The notes beneath the pieces were generated by a model. It worked only from the letters and a program-made list of their open reading frames with translations, was not told where the DNA came from and searched no databases. Below, one piece after another: positions 4,173-61,400 of a stretch of 64,000 bases of DNA. How positions within the stretch are numbered: position 1 is the first letter of the stretch; every line of letters starts with the position of its first letter. Source of the DNA: Thermoanaerobaculia bacterium (GTDB lineage Bacteria > Acidobacteriota > Thermoanaerobaculia > Multivoradales > UBA5704); NCBI GenBank assembly GCA_035490435.1, contig DATHEF010000027.1:20193-84192 (forward strand). Direction: 5' to 3'. The position numbers were made by a program, and so were the translations under genes.

Positions 4173-4220
4173 GAACGAGAGACAGCCCACGCAGGGACCG
4201 CCCTTTCCGGGAGGTCCGCC

Positions 4221-4410
4221 GGCGTTTCAGGAGCTCTCGCCAGGGTTTTTCAGACTCTCGCCAGCGCTTCCGAGACTCTCGCCGGCATTTTTCGGACTCC
4301 CGCCAACGTTTCGGAGACTTCCGCCGTCATTTCCGGGGTTATTGCCCGACTTTTCCAGAGGCTTGCCAGCGTTTGGAGAGTCTCGGAAATGTCGGCGAGA
4401 CTCTCCGAAA
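4221..4410. repeat. 8 tandem 21-bp repeats (consensus RGCGTTTYCGGAGACTCTCGCC) followed by a 32-bp palindrome GGAGAGTCTCGGAAATGTCGGCGAGACTCTCC
   Basis: Units read directly at 4221, 4242, 4263, 4284, 4305, 4326, 4347 and 4368. The palindrome spans 4375-4406. Lies in the convergent intergenic gap between the MFS gene (+) and a small membrane-protein gene (-). Confidence 0.8.
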
Positions 4411-4776: not shown

Positions 4777-5886
4777 ATGAGATACGCCCTTCGCCTCTCC
4801 GTGCTCCTCCTGGCCGCCGCCCCGGCGCTCTGCGGGCAGACCCCGGCTCCGGCCGAGAGGGACTGCACGCTCCGTGACTTCCATTTCGCGAGCGGCGAGA
4901 CGCTGCCCGAGTTGCGCGTCCACTACACCACTCTCGGCACGCCCGCCAAGGACGCAGCCGGGAAAGTGCGCAACGCCGTGCTGATCCTCCACGGCACGAC
5001 CGGCGATGGAAAGGGTTTCCTTCGTGACCAGTTCTCCGGCCAGCTCTTCGGTCCCGGGCAGACCCTCGACGCGGCGAGCCACTTCATCATCCTCCCGGAC
5101 GGGATCGGCCACGGCAAGTCGAGCCGCCCGAGCGACGGGCTCCACATGCGCTTCCCGAAGTACACCTACGACGACATGGTGCGGGCGCAGCACGATCTGC
5201 TCACCCAATGTCTGAAAGTCGATCACCTCCGCCTGGTGATGGGCACCTCCATGGGCGGCATGCACACCTGGGTCTGGGGGTATACCTATCCCGATTTCAT
5301 GGAGGCCCTGATGCCGCTCGCCAGCGCGCCCGTCGAGATCGCCGGACGCAACCGGATGATGCGGAAGATGATCCTCGATTCGATCACCAGCGATCCCGAG
5401 TGGAAGCACGGCGAATATACCGCTCAGCCCCGCGGGCTCGCCTCGGCGATCCACATCCTGCTCCTGATGGGGTCGAGCCCCCTCCAGTGGCAGAAGGAGG
5501 CCCCGACCCGCGAGAAGGCCGAGGCGCTCCTGGACACCCTGATCCAGCGCCAGGCCGCGATCCTCGACGCCAACGACCTGATCTACCAGTTCGACGCCTC
5601 CAAGAGCTACAACCCCCTCCCCCACCTCGGGAAGATCCGCGCTCCCCTCTTCGCCGTCAATTCCGCGGACGACGAGGTCAATCCGCCGGAGCTCGGCATT
5701 CTCGACGAGGCGATCCACCGCGTCCCCCGCGGCCGGTACATCCTGCTCCCCATCACCGCCGAGACCCGCGGCCATGGCACCCACTCCCTGCCGGCGGTCT
5801 GGGGGAAGTACCTGGCCGAGCTCCTCGCCGGAGCGGAGGGGCCGAAGGCCAGCCTGCAAGCCGGGGGACCGCCTGAGGCCGGATGA
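4777..5886 (+). CDS. Secreted alpha/beta-fold hydrolase (homoserine O-acetyltransferase-like fold)
   Basis: Signal peptide; VLILHGTTGDG plus a nucleophile-elbow-like GTSMGG; length and architecture of MetX-like alpha/beta hydrolases. Its TGA stop overlaps the next gene's ATG (ATGA). Confidence 0.7.
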   Translation: MRYALRLSVLLLAAAPALCGQTPAPAERDCTLRDFHFASGETLPELRVHYTTLGTPAKDAAGKVRNAVLILHGTTGDGKGFLRDQFSGQLFGPGQTLDAASHFIILPDGIGHGKSSRPSDGLHMRFPKYTYDDMVRAQHDLLTQCLKVDHLRLVMGTSMGGMHTWVWGYTYPDFMEALMPLASAPVEIAGRNRMMRKMILDSITSDPEWKHGEYTAQPRGLASAIHILLLMGSSPLQWQKEAPTREKAEALLDTLIQRQAAILDANDLIYQFDASKSYNPLPHLGKIRAPLFAVNSADDEVNPPELGILDEAIHRVPRGRYILLPITAETRGHGTHSLPAVWGKYLAELLAGAEGPKASLQAGGPPEAG

Positions 5887-12081: not shown

Positions 12082-13752
12082 CTACCGCGGTTCCCGGGCG
12101 CTTTTCGCCAGCCCGGCGATGACGTCGGTCAGCTCGTGGGGATCGACCGGCTTGGCGAGATGGACCTGGAAACCGGCGGTGAGGGCCCGCCGGCGGTCCT
12201 CCGGGCTGGCGAACGCGGTCACCGCCACGGCCGGGAGGTCCTCGGCGTCGTAGCCGAGGGCGCGGATCTCGCGGATCAGGTCGTAGCCGTCGCGCTCGGG
12301 CATGCCGATGTCGCTCACCAGGACGTCGGGGGTGAAATCCGCGAGCAGCCCGAGGGCCTGATTGACGGAGGCGGCCGCGGCCATCTCCGCCCCCTGCAGG
12401 GACAGCAGCTCGGTGAGGGCGTCGAGAGTCGCCTCGTCGTCTTCCACCGCCAGCACGCGCAGGCCGGCGAGCGGCGCTCCTCTCGCGCGGCGGCCGGCCG
12501 GCTCGGCTGCGGCGGCCTCGACGACGGGGTGCTCCTTCGTCGCCTGCTGGGGCTGCACGAGCGGCAGGGTGACGGTGAACGTGGCGCCCTCCCCCTTGCC
12601 GGGGCTGGCCGCCGAGATGGCGCCGCCGTGCAACTCGACGAGCTGGCGCACGATCGCCAGGCCGAGGCCCAGCCCCCCCTGCCGCCGGGTCGTCGAGGCA
12701 TCCGCCTGCCAGAAGAAGTCGAAGATGTGGGGCAGCATCTCAGGCTCGATCCCCTCGCCGCCGTCGCGTACCTGGATGCGGACCTCGCCGCTCCCCTCCT
12801 CCAGGCGGATCTCCACCCAGCCGCCCCGCGGCGTGAACTTGACGGCGTTGCCCAACAGGTTGACCACGATCTGCTCCAGGCGGCCGGGATCGGCGAGCAC
12901 CGGGCCGGCGCCCGGATCGAGGAGCCGCTCGATGCGGACCTCCCGGGCCTCGGCGGCCGGGCGTACGGAGGCGAGGGCGGCCTCGACGATCTCCACGAGA
13001 TAAGCGGGGCGCATCTCGAGCCGCAGCTTGCCGGAGATCACGCGCGAGATGTCGAGCAGGTCGCCGATGAGCTGGGCCTGGAGCCTGGCGTTGCGTTCGA
13101 TCACGTCGAGGGCGCGCGATTTCCCGGCGGCGTCGAGCTGGCCGGAGCGCAGGATCTGCGTCCAGCCAGTGATGGCGTGGACCGGTGTGCGCAGCTCGTG
13201 CGAGAGGGTGGCGAGGAACTGGTCCTTCATCTGGTTCGCCGTTTCGGCCTCGGCGCGCGCCCGCTCGGCGTCCTCCTTGGCGGCCCGCAGGCTCTCCTCG
13301 GTCCGCTTGAGCTCGGAGATGTCGGTCGCCGAGACCGAGATCCCGACTTCGGTGGGCTCGACGACGACCCGGAACCAGCGCTCGCTGATGTAGCTCCGCT
13401 GGTCGAACTGGCTGGCCACCCCCTCCTCCATCGCCCGGCGGTAGTGGCCGTCCATCTCGGTGCCCGCCAGCTCCGGGTAGGCCTCCCAGAGGGAGCGCCC
13501 GATGATCTGCGAGGCCGGCCCGCGGCCGTAGCGCTCGATGAATTTCCGGTTGACGTAGAGAAACCGCCAGTCGCGGTCGACGGCGAAGAAGGAGCCGCTG
13601 ATGTTCTCGAGGGCGCGCAGCCGCAGGAAGTCCGCCGCTTCCGGCTGGCTCCTGGCGCCCGCCGCCTGAACCGAGGCCCGGTACAGGAGGTACGCCAGCA
13701 GGACGATCACCCCCATCAGCAGCGCTACGATCGCGATCCCGGCGGCCGGCAT
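12082..13752 (-). CDS. PAS-domain hybrid sensor histidine kinase / response regulator
   Basis: TM anchor, PAS, H-box LSHELRTPVHAI, G-boxes, and a REC domain (LAVEDDEAT...DVLVSDIGMPERDG...AKP). Confidence 0.9.
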   Translation of the reverse strand: MPAAGIAIVALLMGVIVLLAYLLYRASVQAAGARSQPEAADFLRLRALENISGSFFAVDRDWRFLYVNRKFIERYGRGPASQIIGRSLWEAYPELAGTEMDGHYRRAMEEGVASQFDQRSYISERWFRVVVEPTEVGISVSATDISELKRTEESLRAAKEDAERARAEAETANQMKDQFLATLSHELRTPVHAITGWTQILRSGQLDAAGKSRALDVIERNARLQAQLIGDLLDISRVISGKLRLEMRPAYLVEIVEAALASVRPAAEAREVRIERLLDPGAGPVLADPGRLEQIVVNLLGNAVKFTPRGGWVEIRLEEGSGEVRIQVRDGGEGIEPEMLPHIFDFFWQADASTTRRQGGLGLGLAIVRQLVELHGGAISAASPGKGEGATFTVTLPLVQPQQATKEHPVVEAAAAEPAGRRARGAPLAGLRVLAVEDDEATLDALTELLSLQGAEMAAAASVNQALGLLADFTPDVLVSDIGMPERDGYDLIREIRALGYDAEDLPAVAVTAFASPEDRRRALTAGFQVHLAKPVDPHELTDVIAGLAKSAREPR

Positions 13753-13754
13753 CT

Positions 13755-16238
13755 CTACGCCTCGCGGGCCACTTCGCGCAGGGTGGCCTGCAGCGCGGGC
13801 AGGTCCACCGGCTTGGTCAGGTGCTTGAGGAAGCCGGCCTCCAGGCTCTGCCGGATGTCTTCCTCCATGCCGTAGCCGGAGAGGGCGATGCCGCGCAGGC
13901 CGTGGCGCGCCGACAGCTCGCGCATCAGGTCGAGGCCGCTGCCGTCCGGCAAGCCGAGGTCGCTAATGACGAAGTCGAAGGCGCCGTCCGCGCCCGCCGC
14001 CGTGATCAGCGCCTCGGCGACGGAGCCCGCAGTGGTGACCTGGTGCCCGTTCAGGGAGAGCAGGTCGGCCATCGCCTCGGCGGTATCGGCGTGATCCTCG
14101 ACCAGGAGAATCTTCAGATTTTGGATTTTGGATTTTGGATTTTGGATTTCCAGCCCTGGTTCGTTGGCGGCGGGGATCGCGACGGCTGTGCGATCGCAAG
14201 GAAGGGAGAGGGTGAAGGCAGCGCCCTGCCCCAGCCCCGCGCTCGCGGCGGTGAGCGCGCCGCCGTGCATCTCGGCGATCGCCTTGCTGATGGCGAGCCC
14301 GAGTCCCAGCCCGCCGGTCCGGCGCGGGCTGCGTGCCCGCCCCTGCTCGAAGGCGTCGAAGATGTGAGGAATCGCCGCCGGATCGATGCCGATGCCGGAG
14401 TCGGCGACCTGGATCAGCAGGCTTCCCGGCTCGGACCACGACCGCACGGTGATTGCGCCGCCGACCGGCGTGAACTTGACGGCGTTGCTGAGCAGGTTCC
14501 AGAGCACCTGGGTCAGCCGCGGGGGGTCGGCCCAGAGGCGATGGTCCTCGGCCGCCAGCTCCGCGATCACCCGCAGGCGGCCGGCGGCGGCTTCCCGCTC
14601 GCAGCAGATCTCGATCGTGTGCTCGATGACCTTGCGGGCGTCGGTGACCTCCAGGCGCAGGTCGAGCTTGCCGCGGGTGATGCGGGTGAGGTCGAGCAGG
14701 TCGTCGATCAGCCGCGCCTCGAGCTCGACGTTGCGCCGGATCATGTCCAGCGGCCGGCGCAGCTCGGCGGGGAGGCGCTCGTCCCCGGCGAGCCCGGAGG
14801 CGAGGAGCAGCACGGGGGTCAGCGGCGTGCGCAGCTCGTGGCTGAGAGTGGCGAGGAAGTGATCCTTCGCCTCGTTGGCGGCCTCGGCCTCGGCGCGCGC
14901 CTCGCTCTCGCGGTCGAGCAGCCGGGCGCGCTCCTCCTCGGCCTGATGGCGGTCGGTGACGTCGAGCATGGCCCCCAGCATCCGCACGGGAGTCCCTGAT
15001 TCGTCATGGAACCCCCGGCCGTTGGTGAGGATCCAGCGCGCTTCGCCGTCCGGCCGGACGATCCGGAACTCGAGCTCGTAGCCTTCGCGGCTTTCAAGGG
15101 CCTGCCGGATCGCCTCCCCGACCCGCCCGGCGTCCTCGGGGTGGATGACGGCGGTGAAGTCCTCGATGCGCCCCTTGAAGTCCGCCGGCGAGATGCCGTG
15201 AATCGCGAAGACCTCCTCCGACCAGTTCAGGCGCTGCCTCGCGATGTCCCAGTCCCAGACGCCGCAGCGGCCGGCGTCGAGGGCCAGGCGCAGGCTCTCC
15301 TCGCTCCGCCGGGCCCCTTCCTCGGCCTGCCGGCGCTCGGCGAATACCGCGGCGAGGAGCATCGAGGTCACCACCGACACGGCCGTATAGCTGTAGAGAT
15401 ACATCAGCCGCTCCTCCACCGTGCCGAGCGCGAAGGGGGCCAAGCCCCTGGCCGTCGCCCAAAAGGCAATCACGACCGCCAGAAACGTCGCGATCGCCGC
15501 TCCCCGGGGACCGAACCGCAGGGCCGCCCAGACGAGGAACGGGAAGAGGGTGAAGGCGAGCGGCGGATGGAGGACCGGGTTGGCGCTCCAGGAGCTCAGC
15601 GTCAGCGCGCCGGCGAGGAACAGGCAGAACCCCAGCGCCGCCGCTTCGACGAGACGCTCCCGGCGCGCCGGCCGGAAAGGGCGCGCGAAGCCGGTCAGCA
15701 GCACCGGCGCCACCAGCAGGACGCCCATGGCGTCGCCCAGCCACCAGGAGAACGCGGACTGGAGCACGCGCGCCGAGGGCACCCGCCAGGCGAGGTTGAG
15801 GGCGGCGACCCCGACGACGGCGCTGATCAGCGGCGCGACCACCACCCCGAGCGTCAGCAGGGCGAGGATGTCGCGCACCCGCTTCAGGCGGTTGCGGAAG
15901 CCCAGCCGGCGCAGCAGCCACCCTCCCGCGAGCGCCCCCAGGGTATTGCCTGCCGCGATCACCGTCGCCGCGACCGGCGGCGTTCCGGTCGAGAAGCTCA
16001 CCAGCAGTGAGCCGAGGAAGATGGCGGGCCACACCCAGGCGCCGCAGAGGAGCACGGCCGCCAGGGCGATCCCGGTGGGGGGCCAGAGCAGGGTCATCCT
16101 CTGCTGGACGAGCGGCACCAGCAGCCCGATCTTGCCGCCGGCGAAGCAGAGGGTGGCGATGAGGACGAGGACGGCCACGCGCTGACCGGGGCTCAGATCG
16201 CGAGCGCCGAACCGCGCGCCGTACAGGTCTTCATTCAT
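13755..16238 (-). CDS. MASE1-PAS hybrid sensor histidine kinase / response regulator
   Basis: ~300-aa polytopic N-terminal MASE1-like domain, PAS (WDWDIARQRLNWSEEVF), H-box LSHELRTPLTPV, HATPase, and REC (LLVEDHADT...DFVISDLGLPDGSG...TKP). A 4-bp gap to the downstream kinase suggests an operon. Confidence 0.85.
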   Translation of the reverse strand: MNEDLYGARFGARDLSPGQRVAVLVLIATLCFAGGKIGLLVPLVQQRMTLLWPPTGIALAAVLLCGAWVWPAIFLGSLLVSFSTGTPPVAATVIAAGNTLGALAGGWLLRRLGFRNRLKRVRDILALLTLGVVVAPLISAVVGVAALNLAWRVPSARVLQSAFSWWLGDAMGVLLVAPVLLTGFARPFRPARRERLVEAAALGFCLFLAGALTLSSWSANPVLHPPLAFTLFPFLVWAALRFGPRGAAIATFLAVVIAFWATARGLAPFALGTVEERLMYLYSYTAVSVVTSMLLAAVFAERRQAEEGARRSEESLRLALDAGRCGVWDWDIARQRLNWSEEVFAIHGISPADFKGRIEDFTAVIHPEDAGRVGEAIRQALESREGYELEFRIVRPDGEARWILTNGRGFHDESGTPVRMLGAMLDVTDRHQAEEERARLLDRESEARAEAEAANEAKDHFLATLSHELRTPLTPVLLLASGLAGDERLPAELRRPLDMIRRNVELEARLIDDLLDLTRITRGKLDLRLEVTDARKVIEHTIEICCEREAAAGRLRVIAELAAEDHRLWADPPRLTQVLWNLLSNAVKFTPVGGAITVRSWSEPGSLLIQVADSGIGIDPAAIPHIFDAFEQGRARSPRRTGGLGLGLAISKAIAEMHGGALTAASAGLGQGAAFTLSLPCDRTAVAIPAANEPGLEIQNPKSKIQNLKILLVEDHADTAEAMADLLSLNGHQVTTAGSVAEALITAAGADGAFDFVISDLGLPDGSGLDLMRELSARHGLRGIALSGYGMEEDIRQSLEAGFLKHLTKPVDLPALQATLREVAREA
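14117..14151. repeat. 7-bp microsatellite (GATTTTG x4 + GATTTCC) inside the kinase/receiver linker of the MASE1 hybrid HK
   Basis: Read directly. An AT-rich heptamer array in a 70% GC gene, encoding IQNPKSKIQNLKI on the minus strand. Confidence 0.9.
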
Positions 16239-33577: not shown

Positions 33578-34393
33578 ATGCCGTCCCGCCGCATCTTCCC
33601 GCCCGAGCCCGCCGTCACCGGGGAGACCCGCATACAGCGCTGGCGGCGCAAGCGGCGCACCTACGTCCTGCGCTGGTTCGACCGCGCGATCCTCTCCCTC
33701 TACCGGATGATCCACTGGCTCGACCGCAAGGCTCCCGTCGAGAGGCGCTACTTCCGGGTGGCGATCTTCGGCTCCAGCCGCATCCAGCCGGAGGACGAGA
33801 CCTATGCCCAGGTGCGCGAGCTCGCCCGCCAGCTCTCCTACATGGGGTGCGACATCGTCACCGGCGGCGGCCCCGGCCTGATGCGGGCGGCCAACGAGGG
33901 GGCCCGGGCCGGCGCCTACCACTACAAGACCCGCTCCTTCGGGCTCACCATCCTCCTGCCCATGGAGGAGCAGCCCAATCCCTTCATCGACGAGGTGGCC
34001 CAGCACTCGATGTTCTTCTCCCGCCTCCACCAGTTCATCCGCCTCTCGCACGCCTACATCGTGATGGACGGCGGCATCGGCACCACCCTGGAGGCGATGA
34101 TGGTCTGGCAGCTCCTGCAGGTGCGGCTGATGAGCGGCCGGACGCTCATCTTCGTGGGGCCGATGTGGCGGGGCTTGCGGAGCTGGATCGAGCGCGAGAT
34201 CATCGGACGCGGACTCGCCTCGCCGCCGGATCTCGACCTCGCCGTCTGGGTGGATACCGTCGACGAAGCCCTGGAGGTGGTGACGCGCGCGCTCGCGGAT
34301 TTCCTCCGCCAGCACAAGGTGATCCTCCCGCCGGCGCTGGAAGAGCCGCCCGGAGGGGCCCCCGTGATCCCGGTCGGCCCCGAGGTCGAGTGA
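33578..34393 (+). CDS. LOG-family protein (cytokinin riboside 5'-monophosphate phosphoribohydrolase-like, TIGR00730)
   Basis: Rossmann motifs VTGGGPGLMRAANEGA and IVMDGGIGTTLE. Confidence 0.8.
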   Translation: MPSRRIFPPEPAVTGETRIQRWRRKRRTYVLRWFDRAILSLYRMIHWLDRKAPVERRYFRVAIFGSSRIQPEDETYAQVRELARQLSYMGCDIVTGGGPGLMRAANEGARAGAYHYKTRSFGLTILLPMEEQPNPFIDEVAQHSMFFSRLHQFIRLSHAYIVMDGGIGTTLEAMMVWQLLQVRLMSGRTLIFVGPMWRGLRSWIEREIIGRGLASPPDLDLAVWVDTVDEALEVVTRALADFLRQHKVILPPALEEPPGGAPVIPVGPEVE

Positions 34394-34398
34394 GCTTG

Positions 34399-34671
34399 GC
34401 GACCCGCGGTTTCAACTCTCCGACCCACGGTCCGAGGACTCCGACCCGTGGGTTCAAGATCCCGACCCGCGGGTCCGACTCTCCGACCCATGGATCCAGC
34501 ACTCCGACCCACGGGTCCACTTCTCCGGACCACGGGTCCAAGACTCCGACCCCCGGGTCCGACTCTCCGGACCGCGGGTCCGCCCCTCCGACCCACGGGT
34601 CCGGCTTTCCAATTCACGGGTCCGACTCCGCGGACCACGGGTCCGGCGCTGCAAACCGCGGGTCCGGCCGC
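34399..34671. repeat. 13 tandem 21-bp repeats, consensus CGACCCRCGGGTCCGACTCTC, each containing the 12-bp palindrome GACCCNNGGGTC
   Basis: Units enumerated directly from the sequence. The array fills the gap between the LOG gene and tolQ. No start-codon-bearing ORF spans it. Confidence 0.85.
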
Positions 34672-58479: not shown

Positions 58480-61400
58480 TCAGATCGCCGTCTTGCGGCG
58501 GCGGAGCGTGCTCCAGGCGGCGAGCAGCAGGAAGAACCCGAGCGCCATCAGGCCCATCTCGGACAGCGTCGGAATCGGCGGGATGACCCCGCCGGCCACG
58601 ACGACGAACGTGGTCGGGTCGGCGGCGCCGGCGGCTGCCGGGCTGTCGGTCTGGACCGTCGTCTCGTTGCTGCCGTCGAGGTCGGCGTCATAAGAGACGC
58701 TCCCCTGGTTGCTGATCGTGGTGCCGGCGGCGGTGCCGGCGTTGATGGTGGCGGTGATGGTGATCGTCACGCTGCCGGCCGCCGGGATGCTGCCGTTCCA
58801 GTTGACGGTGCTGGCCACGGTCGTCGCCGTGCCGCTGGTGGCGTTGGCGCTGACCAGGGTCAGGCCGGCGGGCAGGGTGTCGGTGAACTCGTTGCCGGCG
58901 TTGTCGGGCGATGCCGAGCTACCGGTGTTCGAGATCACGATCGTATAGGTCACCGTGCTGCCGGCCACGAAGGTGCCGCTCACGGTCTTGGTCGCCGAGA
59001 GGGTCGCGCCGCCGACCGTGAACGTGGTCGGATCATTGGCCCCACCCACCGACGGATCGTCGCTGGTTCCCGACGACTCGTTGGTGCCGTTGAGATCGGC
59101 GTCGAAGGCGATCGACGCCTGGTTGGAGACCGTGGTGCCGGGGGCGGTGCCGGCATTGACCGTGGCGGTGATGGTGATCGTCACGCTGCCGGCCGCCGGG
59201 ATGCTGCCGTTCCAGTTGACGGTGCTGGCCACGGTCGTCGCCGTGCCGCTGGTGGCGTTGGCGCTGACCAGGGTCAGGCCGGCGGGCAGGGTGTCGGTGA
59301 GCTCGTTGCCGGCGTTGTCGGGCGAGGCCGAGCTGCCGGTGTTCGAGATCACGATCGTGTAGGTCACCGTGCTGCCGGCCACGAAGGTGCCGCTCACCGT
59401 CTTGGTCGCCGAGATCGCCGCGCTGCCGACCACGAAGATGGTCGGATCGCTCGCGCCGCCGGCGCTGGGGTCGTCGGTGGAGTTGCTGGCCTCGTTCGTG
59501 CCGTCGTTGTTGGCGTCGTACGAAACGGTGCCCTGGTTGCTGATCGTCGTGCCTTGAGCGCCGGCGTTGACCGTCGCGGTGATGGTGATGGTGACGCTGC
59601 CGCCGAGAGGCGCCAGCGAGCCGTTCCAGGTGGCCGTGTTGGCCGCGGTCGCCGCCGTGCCGCTGGTGGCGGTGGCACTGACCAGGGTCAGGCCGGCGGG
59701 CAGGACGTCGGTGAACTCGTTGCCGGCGTTGTCCGCCTGGGCGGCCGTGCCGCTGTTGGTGAGCGTCACGGTGTAGGTCACCGTGCCGCCGACCTGGAAG
59801 GTGCCGGTCACCGTCTTGGTCGCCGTCACGTTGACCGTGCCGGTAAAGCCCGCGCAGACGAAGTGGACGGGGGTGACGAACATCGACCAGGCGTTGAAGC
59901 TGCCGTTGCCGGCCGGACAGCCGCCGGCCGCCGCCGAGAACATGTCCGCGGCCAGCGCCGACCAAGTCCCCTTCGAGCTGGTGCCGTCGTAACGCGACAG
60001 GCTGCCGATGGGATCCGCCGGGCGAGTCGGATCGACGAGGACTGTCCAGGGAGAGTTGTAAACCGGCAGCCAGGACTTGGAGTACGGTGCGATGGCGGCC
60101 GTCGCCTGCACCATGTCGTTGGTCGCGATCGCCGCGACGTCGTCGTCGATCACCATGTTGGTGATGGCCGGGCCGCCGCAGTCGAAGAGACCGTCCAGCA
60201 GCGCGACGAGGTCGGTGCCGACGCCGCCGGGCGAGCGCAGCATCACCGCCATGTCGCCGGTGGCGGGGCCGGTGAGGCTGTCGACGCGGAAGTCGACGTC
60301 GGCGATCTCGAAGTCGTCGGTGACGTTGATCTGGTGGAAGACGCCGCGCGCCCGGTTGTCCGCGATGACGAGGTCGGGGTTCGGATCGCCCGTGTAGGTG
60401 ACGACCGGATCGGTGCCGCTGCGGGCGCCCATCCGCACGCGGAAGGTGGTCGAGCTGGTGCCGAGGCTCGACGTCGTGGTGAGGGTGAAGTCGATGGCGC
60501 TGCCGCAGACGACCGACGGGTCGACGGTGATGAGGAAGGTATCGCCGGTCGCCGTGCCCTGCGGCGCGATCGCGCCGTAGGTCGAGCTGTTGTCGAAGAT
60601 CGTCACGCCGGGCGTCGAGGTCGAGAGCGTCGCCGTGGCGCTGGCCACCGCCTTGCTCGCGGCGCGCCACGGGTTGGTCAGCTTGACCGTGAGCTTGACC
60701 GGCTCGCCGGGATCGATCGCGCCGTTGTTATTGGCGGCGCTGTCGTCGATGGTGACGTCGGTGAGCGGATCGACGACTTCGAGGAAGGGCACGAGGAACG
60801 ACTCGTGGACGGCCTCGTGGCTGCGCAGGTAGCGCCCCTGGACCGTGAACGGAGCCTGGGCGCCGTAGCCCAGCCCGCGGTCGGCGAAACCGGCCCAGAT
60901 CGACGCCTCGTTGGCGCAGGCGTTGGTGGCGCAGTCGGCATCGAAGACCGCGTCGCGGGCGTCGGTAAAGCTGGGGTTGACCGGCGTCATCTTCAGCGCG
61001 TCGGTCACCAGTTGCAGCATCGTCTGGTTACCGGTCGGCACGTCGCCGTTGGCGCCGGCGGGATCGGCGATCACCCGGCTGCGCACCTCCCACAGACTGA
61101 GCGCCCAGATCTCGCCCGAGTTGTGGACCTCCATCGCACCGCCCAGGTTGCTGCCGAGCGGGTCCGGGGGGGAGAAGCCGCCGCTGAGGTCGTTGGTGAC
61201 GTCGTCGACGTCGGCCCAGGTCAGCGGGTTGACGGTGTTGTCCGTCGCATAGGGGAACCGGCGGATGCCGTAGATGTAGTTGTCGAAATAGGCGAGGCCG
61301 CCGAACTTGTAGGTCGCGTAGGCGCCCGTCCCGTAGTGCCCGTTGGGATCGTCGGCGTTGGTGGCGTTGAGCAGGGACAGGGCATAGAAGTCGCTCCACC

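Follow-up and report, generated by a model that had tools for sequence, protein, structure and literature searches.

We analyzed a 64-kb window (the whole stretch of DNA, 64,000 nt, to which coordinates refer unless another locus is named) from the genome of a Thermoanaerobaculia bacterium (Acidobacteriota), in which a short array of AT-rich heptads lies inside a gene for a hybrid histidine kinase. The gene (13755..16238, minus strand), defined by its open reading frame (ORF), translation and Pfam matches, encodes an 827-aa protein with the domain order MASE1-PAS-HisKA-HATPase_c-REC, REC being the receiver domain. An exact-sequence look-up returned NCBI entry HTG33038.1 as a 100% match (metagenome-assembled genome [MAG], third-party annotation [TPA], Thermoanaerobaculia bacterium, Acidobacteriota). 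Pfam places MASE1 at residues 24-303, PAS_3 at 337-423, HisKA at 457-522, HATPase_c at 571-681 and Response_reg at 710-820, every one of them above its curated cut-off. In a 44-sequence alignment, H467 (in SHELRTP) and D760 (in SDLGLPDG) are invariant. The protein thus has the features of a hybrid histidine kinase, namely HisKA with its phospho-acceptor His, HATPase_c and, at the C terminus of the same chain, REC with its phospho-acceptor Asp.

Tandem Repeats Finder reported a repeat of the unit GATTTTG at 14117-14149, with a period of 7, 4.7 copies, 100% matches and a score of 66. Read directly, GATTTTG begins at 14117, 14124, 14131 and 14138, and an imperfect GATTTCC occupies 14145-14151. 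On the coding (minus) strand the array (14117..14151) consists of GGAAATC and four copies of CAAAATC, i.e., five AAATC cores at 7-nt spacing, and GGAAATC+(CAAAATC)4+TG encodes EIQNPKSKIQNL (aa 697-708). The array spans E697 to N707 and the first base of L708, between the end of HATPase_c (681) and the start of REC (710); the codons for residues 697-710 read gaa atc caa aat cca aaa tcc aaa atc caa aat ctg aag att (EIQNPKSKIQNLKI). Local GC content is 0.50-0.52 at the array, compared with 0.65-0.79 elsewhere in the gene (~0.70 for the gene). These results bear out an earlier, sequence-only reading of the locus, which had described four GATTTTG units and one imperfect copy at 14117-14151 as an AT-rich repeat in a gene of about 70% GC, translated between the HATPase and REC domains of a MASE1 hybrid kinase. 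A three-unit pattern with up to 3 mismatches had an expectation of 0.00 per 100 dinucleotide shuffles and occurs once in the window, at the array; a relaxed AAATCNNAAATC scan of the 64 kb turned up no further array. The repeat is genuine, not a microsatellite that arose by chance.

The sequences on either side of the array are of different character. Upstream, the HATPase_c coding region (aa 571-681; 14196..14528, minus strand; Pfam) is followed by a GC-rich part of the linker (aa 682-696; 14152..14195, minus strand), which varied in length and sequence between orthologues when 50 homologues were compared. In an AlphaFold model built from the 44-sequence alignment, residues 684-705 are predicted to be coil with a predicted local distance difference test score (pLDDT) below 50, and the array-encoded segment is likewise predicted to be disordered (pLDDT 32-58). 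Immediately 3′ of the array, an out-of-frame TGA lies within cTGAag (14114..14116, minus strand). Five nucleotides past the last AAATC core is the codon of I710 (ATT; 14109..14111, minus strand), the first residue of REC strand beta-1 according to the sequence and its orthologues, so that the geometry is CAAAATC-TGAAG-ATT. The REC coding region (aa 710-827 with the stop codon; 13755..14111, minus strand; Pfam, AlphaFold) follows, with beta-1 modelled at residues 709-713 and the predicted REC fold at pLDDT 80-90; this is the part that a one-unit change severs from the kinase.

We simulated changes in unit number, which confirmed the frame logic proposed from the sequence, namely that a gain or loss of one unit is frame-shifting. 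The TGA at 14114..14116, flush with the array end, becomes a stop codon when one unit is lost or two are gained, and the product is then a kinase without REC (705 or 712 aa) that ends in ...KSKI*. When one unit is gained or two are lost, 55 out-of-frame residues follow and the proteins have 760 or 753 aa; +3 or -3 units preserve the frame. Among the 11 orthologue DNAs read, the flush TGA is present at the array end in six and absent in L005, L206, L207, L208 and L215.

A natural counterpart of the one-unit loss was found in a pair of related strains. L213 (GCA_045807625.1, protein P0140) encodes an intact 700-aa hybrid kinase, whereas L002 (GCA_045807585.1, protein P0054) encodes a 573-aa kinase without REC, ending in ...ENPKSKI-TGA. 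The two are 98.3% identical across 7.7 kb, and their sole coding-region indel is one exact CAAAATC unit, by which L002 is shorter. The L002 junction reads gag aat cca aaa tcc aaa atc TGA gg atc ctc..., and its stop is the TGA corresponding to window 14114..14116. NCBI annotates the L002 REC as a separate 123-aa ORF that starts at the ATC of the I710 position and has no canonical start; the REC segments of the two strains differ at 2 nucleotides. One-unit slippage thus occurs in nature and separates the kinase from REC, and copy number in related strains is neither invariant nor variable in frame-preserving steps only, although a frame-changing difference between close strains rests on this single pair. 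The proposal that a unit change deletes the receiver holds in part: REC is lost from the kinase, but as a split-off ORF it is not deleted.

Across the family, the tally of alleles comprises 78 distinct proteins in frame in the standard register, one split allele and one in-frame allele with a shifted register (L215). No in-frame variant of +3 or -3 units was found among the 78 family proteins, and no +1-unit allele was seen. The single split allele and the lack of +/-3-unit variants indicate that copy number is otherwise fixed. A search for REC-only proteins found no orphan REC on a long contig besides that of L002, the short matches being nearly all contig-end fragments, and a strain comparison anchored on the identical DUF1304 neighbour returned contigs without the kinase or duplicates of the source contig. 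Other family members are truncated or split outside the array, in the PAS and HATPase regions (P0073, P0124/P0125 and P0264); P0264 is truncated away from its own array, which is in frame. These truncations are either sequencing or assembly indels or genuine pseudogenes, and represent a non-zero background of disruption in MAG data.

The array is conserved beyond this pair of strains, its nucleotides being preserved in orthologues of 65-93% identity. A search of 5.8 billion proteins recovered a Thermoanaerobaculia kinase family at 60-93% identity, including a PAS-less subfamily of ~700 aa in the same syntenic position; a profile scan of contigs with the kinase alignment gave, among the matches listed, one close orthologue (L005) and otherwise generic kinase motifs. 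Despite the hypervariable linker upstream, a 12-aa motif directly before REC is conserved in the family, with L708 invariant and N707, I705, K702 and P701 each at 90% or more. We read the DNA of the junction in nine orthologous loci for codon and identity counts. The G+C count at third codon positions (GC3) is 2-5/11 in the array, compared with 33-39/40 in the flanks (~92% GC3), and where the window has its seven AT-ending codons, 59 of the 63 orthologue codons likewise end in A or T. Array identity among the nine DNAs (74-97% aa identity over the first 34 REC codons) is 24-33/33 nt, or 27-33/33 without the decayed array of L005, while the four-fold sites of the adjacent REC are identical at 8/17 to 15/22 positions in most pairs (~50-70%). 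L207 belongs to the different, PAS-less subfamily, yet matches the window at 33/33 array positions, compared with 13/19 four-fold sites.

L215 retains a five-unit array in a shifted codon register, so that its peptide is NPKSEIQNPKSLS, and the DNA is therefore conserved where the peptide is not. At this locus (L215 120-200), the five heptads are accompanied by a 7-nt spacer, CCTCTCC, an arrangement that resembles a unit change mended by a 2-nt compensation. In 68 array-bearing proteins, we counted 64 substitutions over ~17 possible changes at the two variable positions of the heptads and 34 over ~50 possible changes in the cores of units 2-5. Judged from these comparisons of sequence, the nucleotides of the array are under constraint and its peptide is not.

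The same heptads occur far outside this gene family. An exact search of JGI metagenomes with the 19-mer ATCCAAAATCCAAAATCTG found at least 119 stretches, almost none of them a kinase. The matches listed yielded 107 non-redundant arrays of at least 3 units, some of which are orthologous loci of related organisms, so that not all are independent (examples are L115 766-799, L148 134-167 and L092 2965-2998). Five units is the preferred length (56 arrays), with 13 arrays of three units, 20 of four, 13 of six and 5 of more. The five-unit arrays take two fixed forms, xxxAATC(CAAAATC)4TG (29) and xxxAATC(CAAAATC)2TGAAATC-CAAAATC (19), and the window 34-mer AATC(CAAAATC)4TG is identical at 21 unrelated loci among the matches listed, with flanking GC of 0.45-0.67; for the family as a whole (L085-L203), flanking GC ranges from ~0.3 to 0.76 across unrelated loci. 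A same-strand start codon lies within 25 nt downstream in 38/107 arrays, often 1-6 nt away and without a Shine-Dalgarno sequence, as in L115 and L148 (CAAAATC-TGAAC-ATG). Opposite-strand starts accompany 21/107 arrays; 10 of these starts fall within the repeat (offsets -3 to -1), and the repeat's own TTG has probably produced them as artefacts. An inverted copy precedes about 25 arrays by no more than 150 nt, several contigs hold 2-4 separate arrays, and some arrays adjoin tRNA or rRNA genes; Rfam searches of 20 array-bearing loci matched only tRNA and rRNA. The window array itself is intragenic and has no inverted partner.

Many short arrays at unrelated loci, a preferred unit number, inverted pairs and positions near ORF starts and ends, which are expected of a dispersed repeat family, were thus observed for this element, and many copies per genome were not (64 kb plus ~60 kb). 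On its sequence, the window array is a copy of a dispersed element with a preferred length. In-frame arrays, with peptides such as NPKSKIQNPKS, were found in a UPF0261 protein between its N- and C-terminal Pfam domains, in a Mur ligase between the M and C domains and inside BacA, which suggests that arrays insert or arise repeatedly in tolerant linkers. The loci with in-frame arrays include L092 2494-3666 (+), L171 1819-3357 (-), L120 30-1055 (+) and L138 5901-8993 (-), and a DUF1156 protein contains several array-derived peptides within one ORF. On L137, a 1562-nt contig with GC 0.76, the array (~1431-1466 in array orientation) overlaps the 3′ end of selA, which ends in ...IQNPKSKI-TGA like the split kinase allele, and lies 3 nt before the ATG of an NtrC-like response regulator (TGAAATC-CCC-ATG; MAAARILIVED...). 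In the rpoB-rpoC spacer of L112, ~100 nt upstream of the rpoC start, inverted arrays (GATTTTG-type, then CAAAATC-type) surround a GC-rich loop and could form a long AU/GU-rich hairpin just before the rpoC ribosome-binding site. The carrier of L112 is a Blastocatellia acidobacterium (RpoC 90% identical to that of Blastocatellia MAGs).

We favour the explanation, to which we assign a probability of about 0.5, that the array is a heptad element constrained at the level of the nucleic acid, with the slippage hotspot a consequence and not the selected function. The dispersed element AATC(CAAAATC)4TG would sit mostly in 5′ leaders in other soil bacteria, including Blastocatellia, and sometimes in inter-domain linkers. 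In the kinase family, it probably arose in a kinase-REC linker that was already fused: distant homologues from several phyla (40-60% identity; Verrucomicrobiota and other Acidobacteriota among them) already have kinase and REC fused, joined by ordinary GC-rich linkers, which indicates that the array entered a pre-existing linker. Selection on the nucleotides themselves would then have maintained the array, with the disordered peptide as a passenger, and the most likely reason is that a single-stranded, A-rich, AAATC-periodic array is recognized on mRNA or DNA. A role at the nucleic-acid level beyond mutability is suggested by nucleotide-level conservation together with identity to an element in non-coding contexts. 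As the unit is 7 nt long, the array doubles as a slippage hotspot, and the loss of one unit, as found in nature, leaves a kinase that lacks REC and stops at the flush TGA, plus an orphan REC ORF. The locus is apparently a rare, in principle reversible site of fuse/split mutation and not a proven fast on/off switch.

Several observations weigh against this explanation. At the window locus, neither Rfam nor the scans for promoters and terminators returned anything, and the predicted fold of the RNA was null as well (z = -0.1). Cycles of unit loss and regain would also homogenize the units and so mimic conservation at the nucleotide level. No other array was found in the 64-kb window or in ~60 kb of orthologous Thermoanaerobaculia loci, and an array that this lineage apparently has at a single site is a poor fit with a trans-acting factor that serves many sites of the genome. 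The substitution counts given above take no account of phylogeny, and as far as the protein is concerned Q/E and K/E are conservative replacements too. The array has decayed in L005 (90% identity), in the second gene of L205, in P0022 and in P0029, and decay in several lineages implies that any function is dispensable.

The sequence-only reading had instead proposed a frameshift switch, in which slipped-strand mispairing would reversibly toggle a contingency locus between the hybrid kinase (ON, fused) and a REC-less kinase (split), with a rewired phosphorelay in some cells. A unit that is not a multiple of 3 inside an ORF, and the frame-breaking one-unit polymorphism between strains of 98.3% identity, are what such a locus would require. 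Loss of one unit meets a flush TGA and gives a clean REC-less kinase in the window and in 6/11 orthologue DNAs, and loss/regain cycles would keep units homogeneous, matching the perfect tracts of divergent lineages. L215 could record a past unit change with 2-nt compensation, comparable to the pseudorevertants of Campylobacter jejuni flgR (PMC3930126), and bvgS switches with tracts as short as C6 (PMC1891110). The natural one-unit change that splits the kinase therefore upholds one part of the proposal. Its other part, a switch in regular use, fares less well. ON and OFF alleles that are both common, with a broad spectrum of copy numbers, were not observed: one split allele stands against 78 in-frame alleles, without +1-unit or +/-3-unit variants, and frameshift-type truncations elsewhere in the family (P0073, P0125) make a single disrupted allele weak evidence. 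There are only four perfect units, and the flush TGA is missing from L005, L206, L207, L208 and L215. Point-interrupted arrays in L204, L205, L206 and L208 keep both their AAATC cores and the five-unit length, which pure mutability does not predict, and the preference for five units also holds in non-coding copies, where reading frame is irrelevant. Given this conservation at the nucleotide level, we regard a contingency locus as a possible but doubtful explanation.

A more far-reaching explanation is unlikely in our judgement. The array could be a so far undescribed fixed-length cis-element of Acidobacteriota and other soil bacteria, whose five AAAUC/AAATC cores would be bound by a single-strand binder with several sites, for instance ribosomal protein S1 or stacked cold-shock proteins (~7 nt each), and which would serve as a translation start or control module independent of Shine-Dalgarno sequences. 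The copy embedded in the kinase would then make REC separately initiated and regulated, and one-unit slippage would toggle between a fused and a two-protein phosphorelay.

Internal translation initiation has also to be considered by itself. The array would act as a leader-type site for ribosome loading or a regulator and drive low-level initiation at I710, yielding free REC beside the hybrid kinase, and the only REC in the split allele. The support is one of geometry: unrelated arrays lie 1-6 nt before an ATG without a Shine-Dalgarno sequence (L115, L148, L137), and the window's CAAAATC-TGAAG-ATT matches CAAAATC-TGAAC-ATG. TAACTGA arrays upstream of start codons have been proposed as translational elements (PMC4679880). 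In L214 (1-120), ATG replaces ATT/ATC at exactly codon 710, five nt past the array, NCBI starts the orphan REC of L002 at the ATC of this codon, and the array is unpaired in the predicted mRNA fold. A canonical start is not conserved, however, I710 being ATT or ATC in nearly all members, and the REC fold by itself explains why beta-1 begins with Ile. As initiators, ATT and ATC are very weak. Initiation at I710 is accordingly a distinctly unlikely reason for the presence of the array.

We consider it very unlikely that the array is kept for its protein or codons, either because the hydrophilic EIQNPKSKIQNL is a linker motif or because rare AT-ending codons pause ribosomes for co-translational folding. 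The strong conservation of the peptide beside a hypervariable linker (the residues from P701 to L708 listed above), its location at a domain boundary, and the 6/11 codons that are rare and AT-ending in a genome of ~92% GC3 would fit such a function. A peptide function would not hold synonymous sites, yet 59/63 codons are AT-ending; L215 retains the DNA array with an altered peptide register, and disorder is predicted for the segment. Were rare codons selected, neither the common ones (ATC and TCC) nor a period of 7 nt would be kept, and neither would the identity to the 34-mer in unrelated organisms' non-coding DNA; several lineages, moreover, have swapped the motif for ordinary GC-rich linkers. 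It is highly improbable that the array is a neutral relic, an inserted element or slippage product slowly decaying in a tolerant linker and now functionless, because, even though linkers tolerate insertions, comparable in-frame arrays occur in linkers of unrelated proteins and decay is seen in L005 and the second gene of L205, the array exceeds the four-fold sites of the conserved neighbouring REC in conservation, where synonymous sites are near saturation and the opposing GC bias is strong, and the uncorrected counts indicate slower change at array sites than at flanking synonymous sites. Both the peptide or rare-codon explanation and the neutral relic fit the synonymous-site data poorly.

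Five further candidates were rejected. A relic of gene fusion, in which the array would derive from an old intercistronic leader between kinase and response regulator, does not agree with the homologues of 40-60% identity, which are already fused as MASE1-PAS-HK-REC with ordinary linkers. Scans found no internal promoter or terminator at the array. For a structured RNA, the sole Rfam 15 match at the window locus was mir-1290 at 22 bits, compared with a gathering score of 82, which is chance level, and the fold z-score at the array is -0.1, with the array unpaired. A G-quadruplex on the complementary strand would use the four GG tracts of the perfect array, (GGATTTT)3GG, but the TGAAATC unit removes one GG in 19/54 five-unit arrays, and quadruplex formation cannot therefore explain the preferred length. 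Programmed ribosomal frameshifting is excluded by the sequence: 78 members can be read straight through the array in the zero frame, and there is no slippery site, as neither C CAA AAU nor A AAU CCA has the form X XXY YYZ.

Frameshifting repeats in signalling genes have precedents. In Bordetella pertussis, bvgS undergoes phase variation at a C6/C7 homopolymeric tract (PMC1891110, citing Stibitz et al. 1989). In both cases a short repeat lies within the coding region of a hybrid sensor kinase, and a one-unit change shifts the frame and truncates the protein. The bvgS tract is a homopolymer and truncation inactivates BvgS, whereas here the repeat is a heptamer and the break comes precisely between two domains, so that the kinase and the REC ORF are each complete. 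Cultures have been shown to switch bvgS reversibly, whereas the window locus is known from consensus assemblies alone, and its host, unlike that of bvgS, is an environmental high-GC acidobacterium. Slippage frameshifts also occur in the two-component genes flgR and flgS of C. jejuni, where pseudorevertants restore the frame by nearby compensating indels (PMC3930126), which the register-shifted L215 resembles. Unlike the window array, the flgR/flgS sites are A/T homopolymers with ON and OFF states at high frequency, and no cross-species conservation of the tracts at the nucleotide level is reported for them. The sequence-only reading had called such phase variation rarely reported in signalling proteins of environmental high-GC bacteria; for frameshift switching in two-component genes, bvgS and flgR/flgS are precedents.

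Heptameric simple sequence repeats (SSRs) are reported to be over-represented in bacteria, and several families offer comparisons. In Haemophilus influenzae, the heptamer SSR (ATCTTTC)n of hmw1A/hmw2A is transcribed, and besides being a mutational hotspot it serves, as RNA, as a cis-element (PMC12721329). It shares the transcribed 7-nt unit with the window array, but it lies in the 5′ untranslated region, has at least 11 units, grades expression and forms a long hairpin cleaved by RNase III, whereas the window array, of 5 units, lies within an ORF and is predicted to have no structure. GGGAATC in Xanthomonas has a commonest length of 4 units, forms inverted pairs and is 89-93% intergenic, and the STRR-type GGGGA(C/T)T of Nostoc is another dispersed heptameric SSR family (PMC4692102). 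TAACTGA arrays of Beggiatoaceae, cyanobacteria and Bacteroidetes have 2-6 copies, mostly just upstream of starts and sometimes between protein modules, and S1, Csp or CsrA have been proposed as binders in translational regulation (PMC4679880). These families resemble the present element in their scattered short arrays, preferred unit number and frequent convergent inverted pairs, and in being mostly intergenic near ORF ends or starts, with occasional intra-ORF copies at the protein periphery or between modules. By direct reading, an ...AATC core is common to GGGAATC, the Nostoc unit (as CCCAATC on the opposite strand) and CAAAATC. In contrast to these families, the CAAAATC unit is A-rich, the G-quadruplex explanation for preferred length is not transferable, and the window copy is intragenic, conserved through a gene family and the sole copy in 64 kb. 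Within the collection of papers searched, none contains CAAAATCCAAAATC, GATTTTGGATTTTG or NPKSKIQ.

Heptads can also act in promoters. At the ctxAB promoter of Vibrio cholerae, TTTTGAT heptads recruit transcriptional regulators and are crucial, and their number correlates with promoter activity, according to the abstract of a preprint (bioRxiv 10.1101/2021.05.14.444153). Both are AT-rich heptad direct repeats, and TTTTGAT resembles the complementary-strand GATTTTG; the ctxAB heptads are a promoter element of a different unit in an AT-rich intergenic region, whereas no promoter-like site was detected at the window array. The palindromic elements of Rickettsia, attributed to Ogata et al. in 2000, are said to be dispersed, both intergenic and in frame within unrelated ORFs, where their peptide is reportedly tolerated as a passenger. 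Unlike the window array, they are palindromes of ~100-150 nt and are not known to have a tandem structure or a potential for frameshifting.

Frameshift switches are textbook material for the surface and restriction genes of pathogens. Cases in signalling genes are few (bvgS, flgS/flgR), and here a heptamer repeat lies exactly between two domains of a hybrid kinase, in a soil acidobacterium of high GC that is uncultured. The locus combines SSR frameshifting in a sensor kinase with a dispersed heptamer array, both of known kinds. A one-unit change provides a concrete and cheap route by which phosphorelay architecture could go from fused to split, and possibly back. The array also links the puzzle of over-represented bacterial heptameric repeats to a tractable case, in which kinase output can be compared with and without a tethered REC.

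Adjacent to the array-bearing gene is a second hybrid kinase of 556 aa, PAS-HisKA-HATPase-REC (12082..13752, minus strand; from its translation and the L001 gene table), whose kinase-REC linker is ordinary, GC-rich and without an array, and which serves as an internal contrast. The syntenic order in the kinase family is Peptidase_M14, MurJ, array-bearing kinase and second hybrid kinase. In L204 (~5150-5230), the downstream hybrid kinase has an array-like linker, GAAAACC CAAAACC CAAAGTC CAGAATC, and in L205 (~5070-5145) the corresponding linker has fully decayed to GC-rich codons. An array-like linker in the downstream kinase of some relatives implies that the kinase-REC module was either duplicated long ago or underwent gene conversion.

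Other repeats were seen elsewhere in the window. At 34400-34666, beginning just past the stop of the ORF at 33578-34393 (+), is a tandem array with a 21-nt period, ~11.7 copies and 70% matches, whose unit CGACCCACGGGTCCAACTCTC contains the palindrome GACCC-NN-GGGTC, and which looks like an intergenic string of small hairpins. A tandem repeat of 414 nt x 2.8 copies with 83% matches lies at 58663-59825, and the regions 2295-2425 and 4216-4332 contain repeats with shorter units (51 nt; 21 or 42 nt); these three are probably repeated protein domains within large ORFs.

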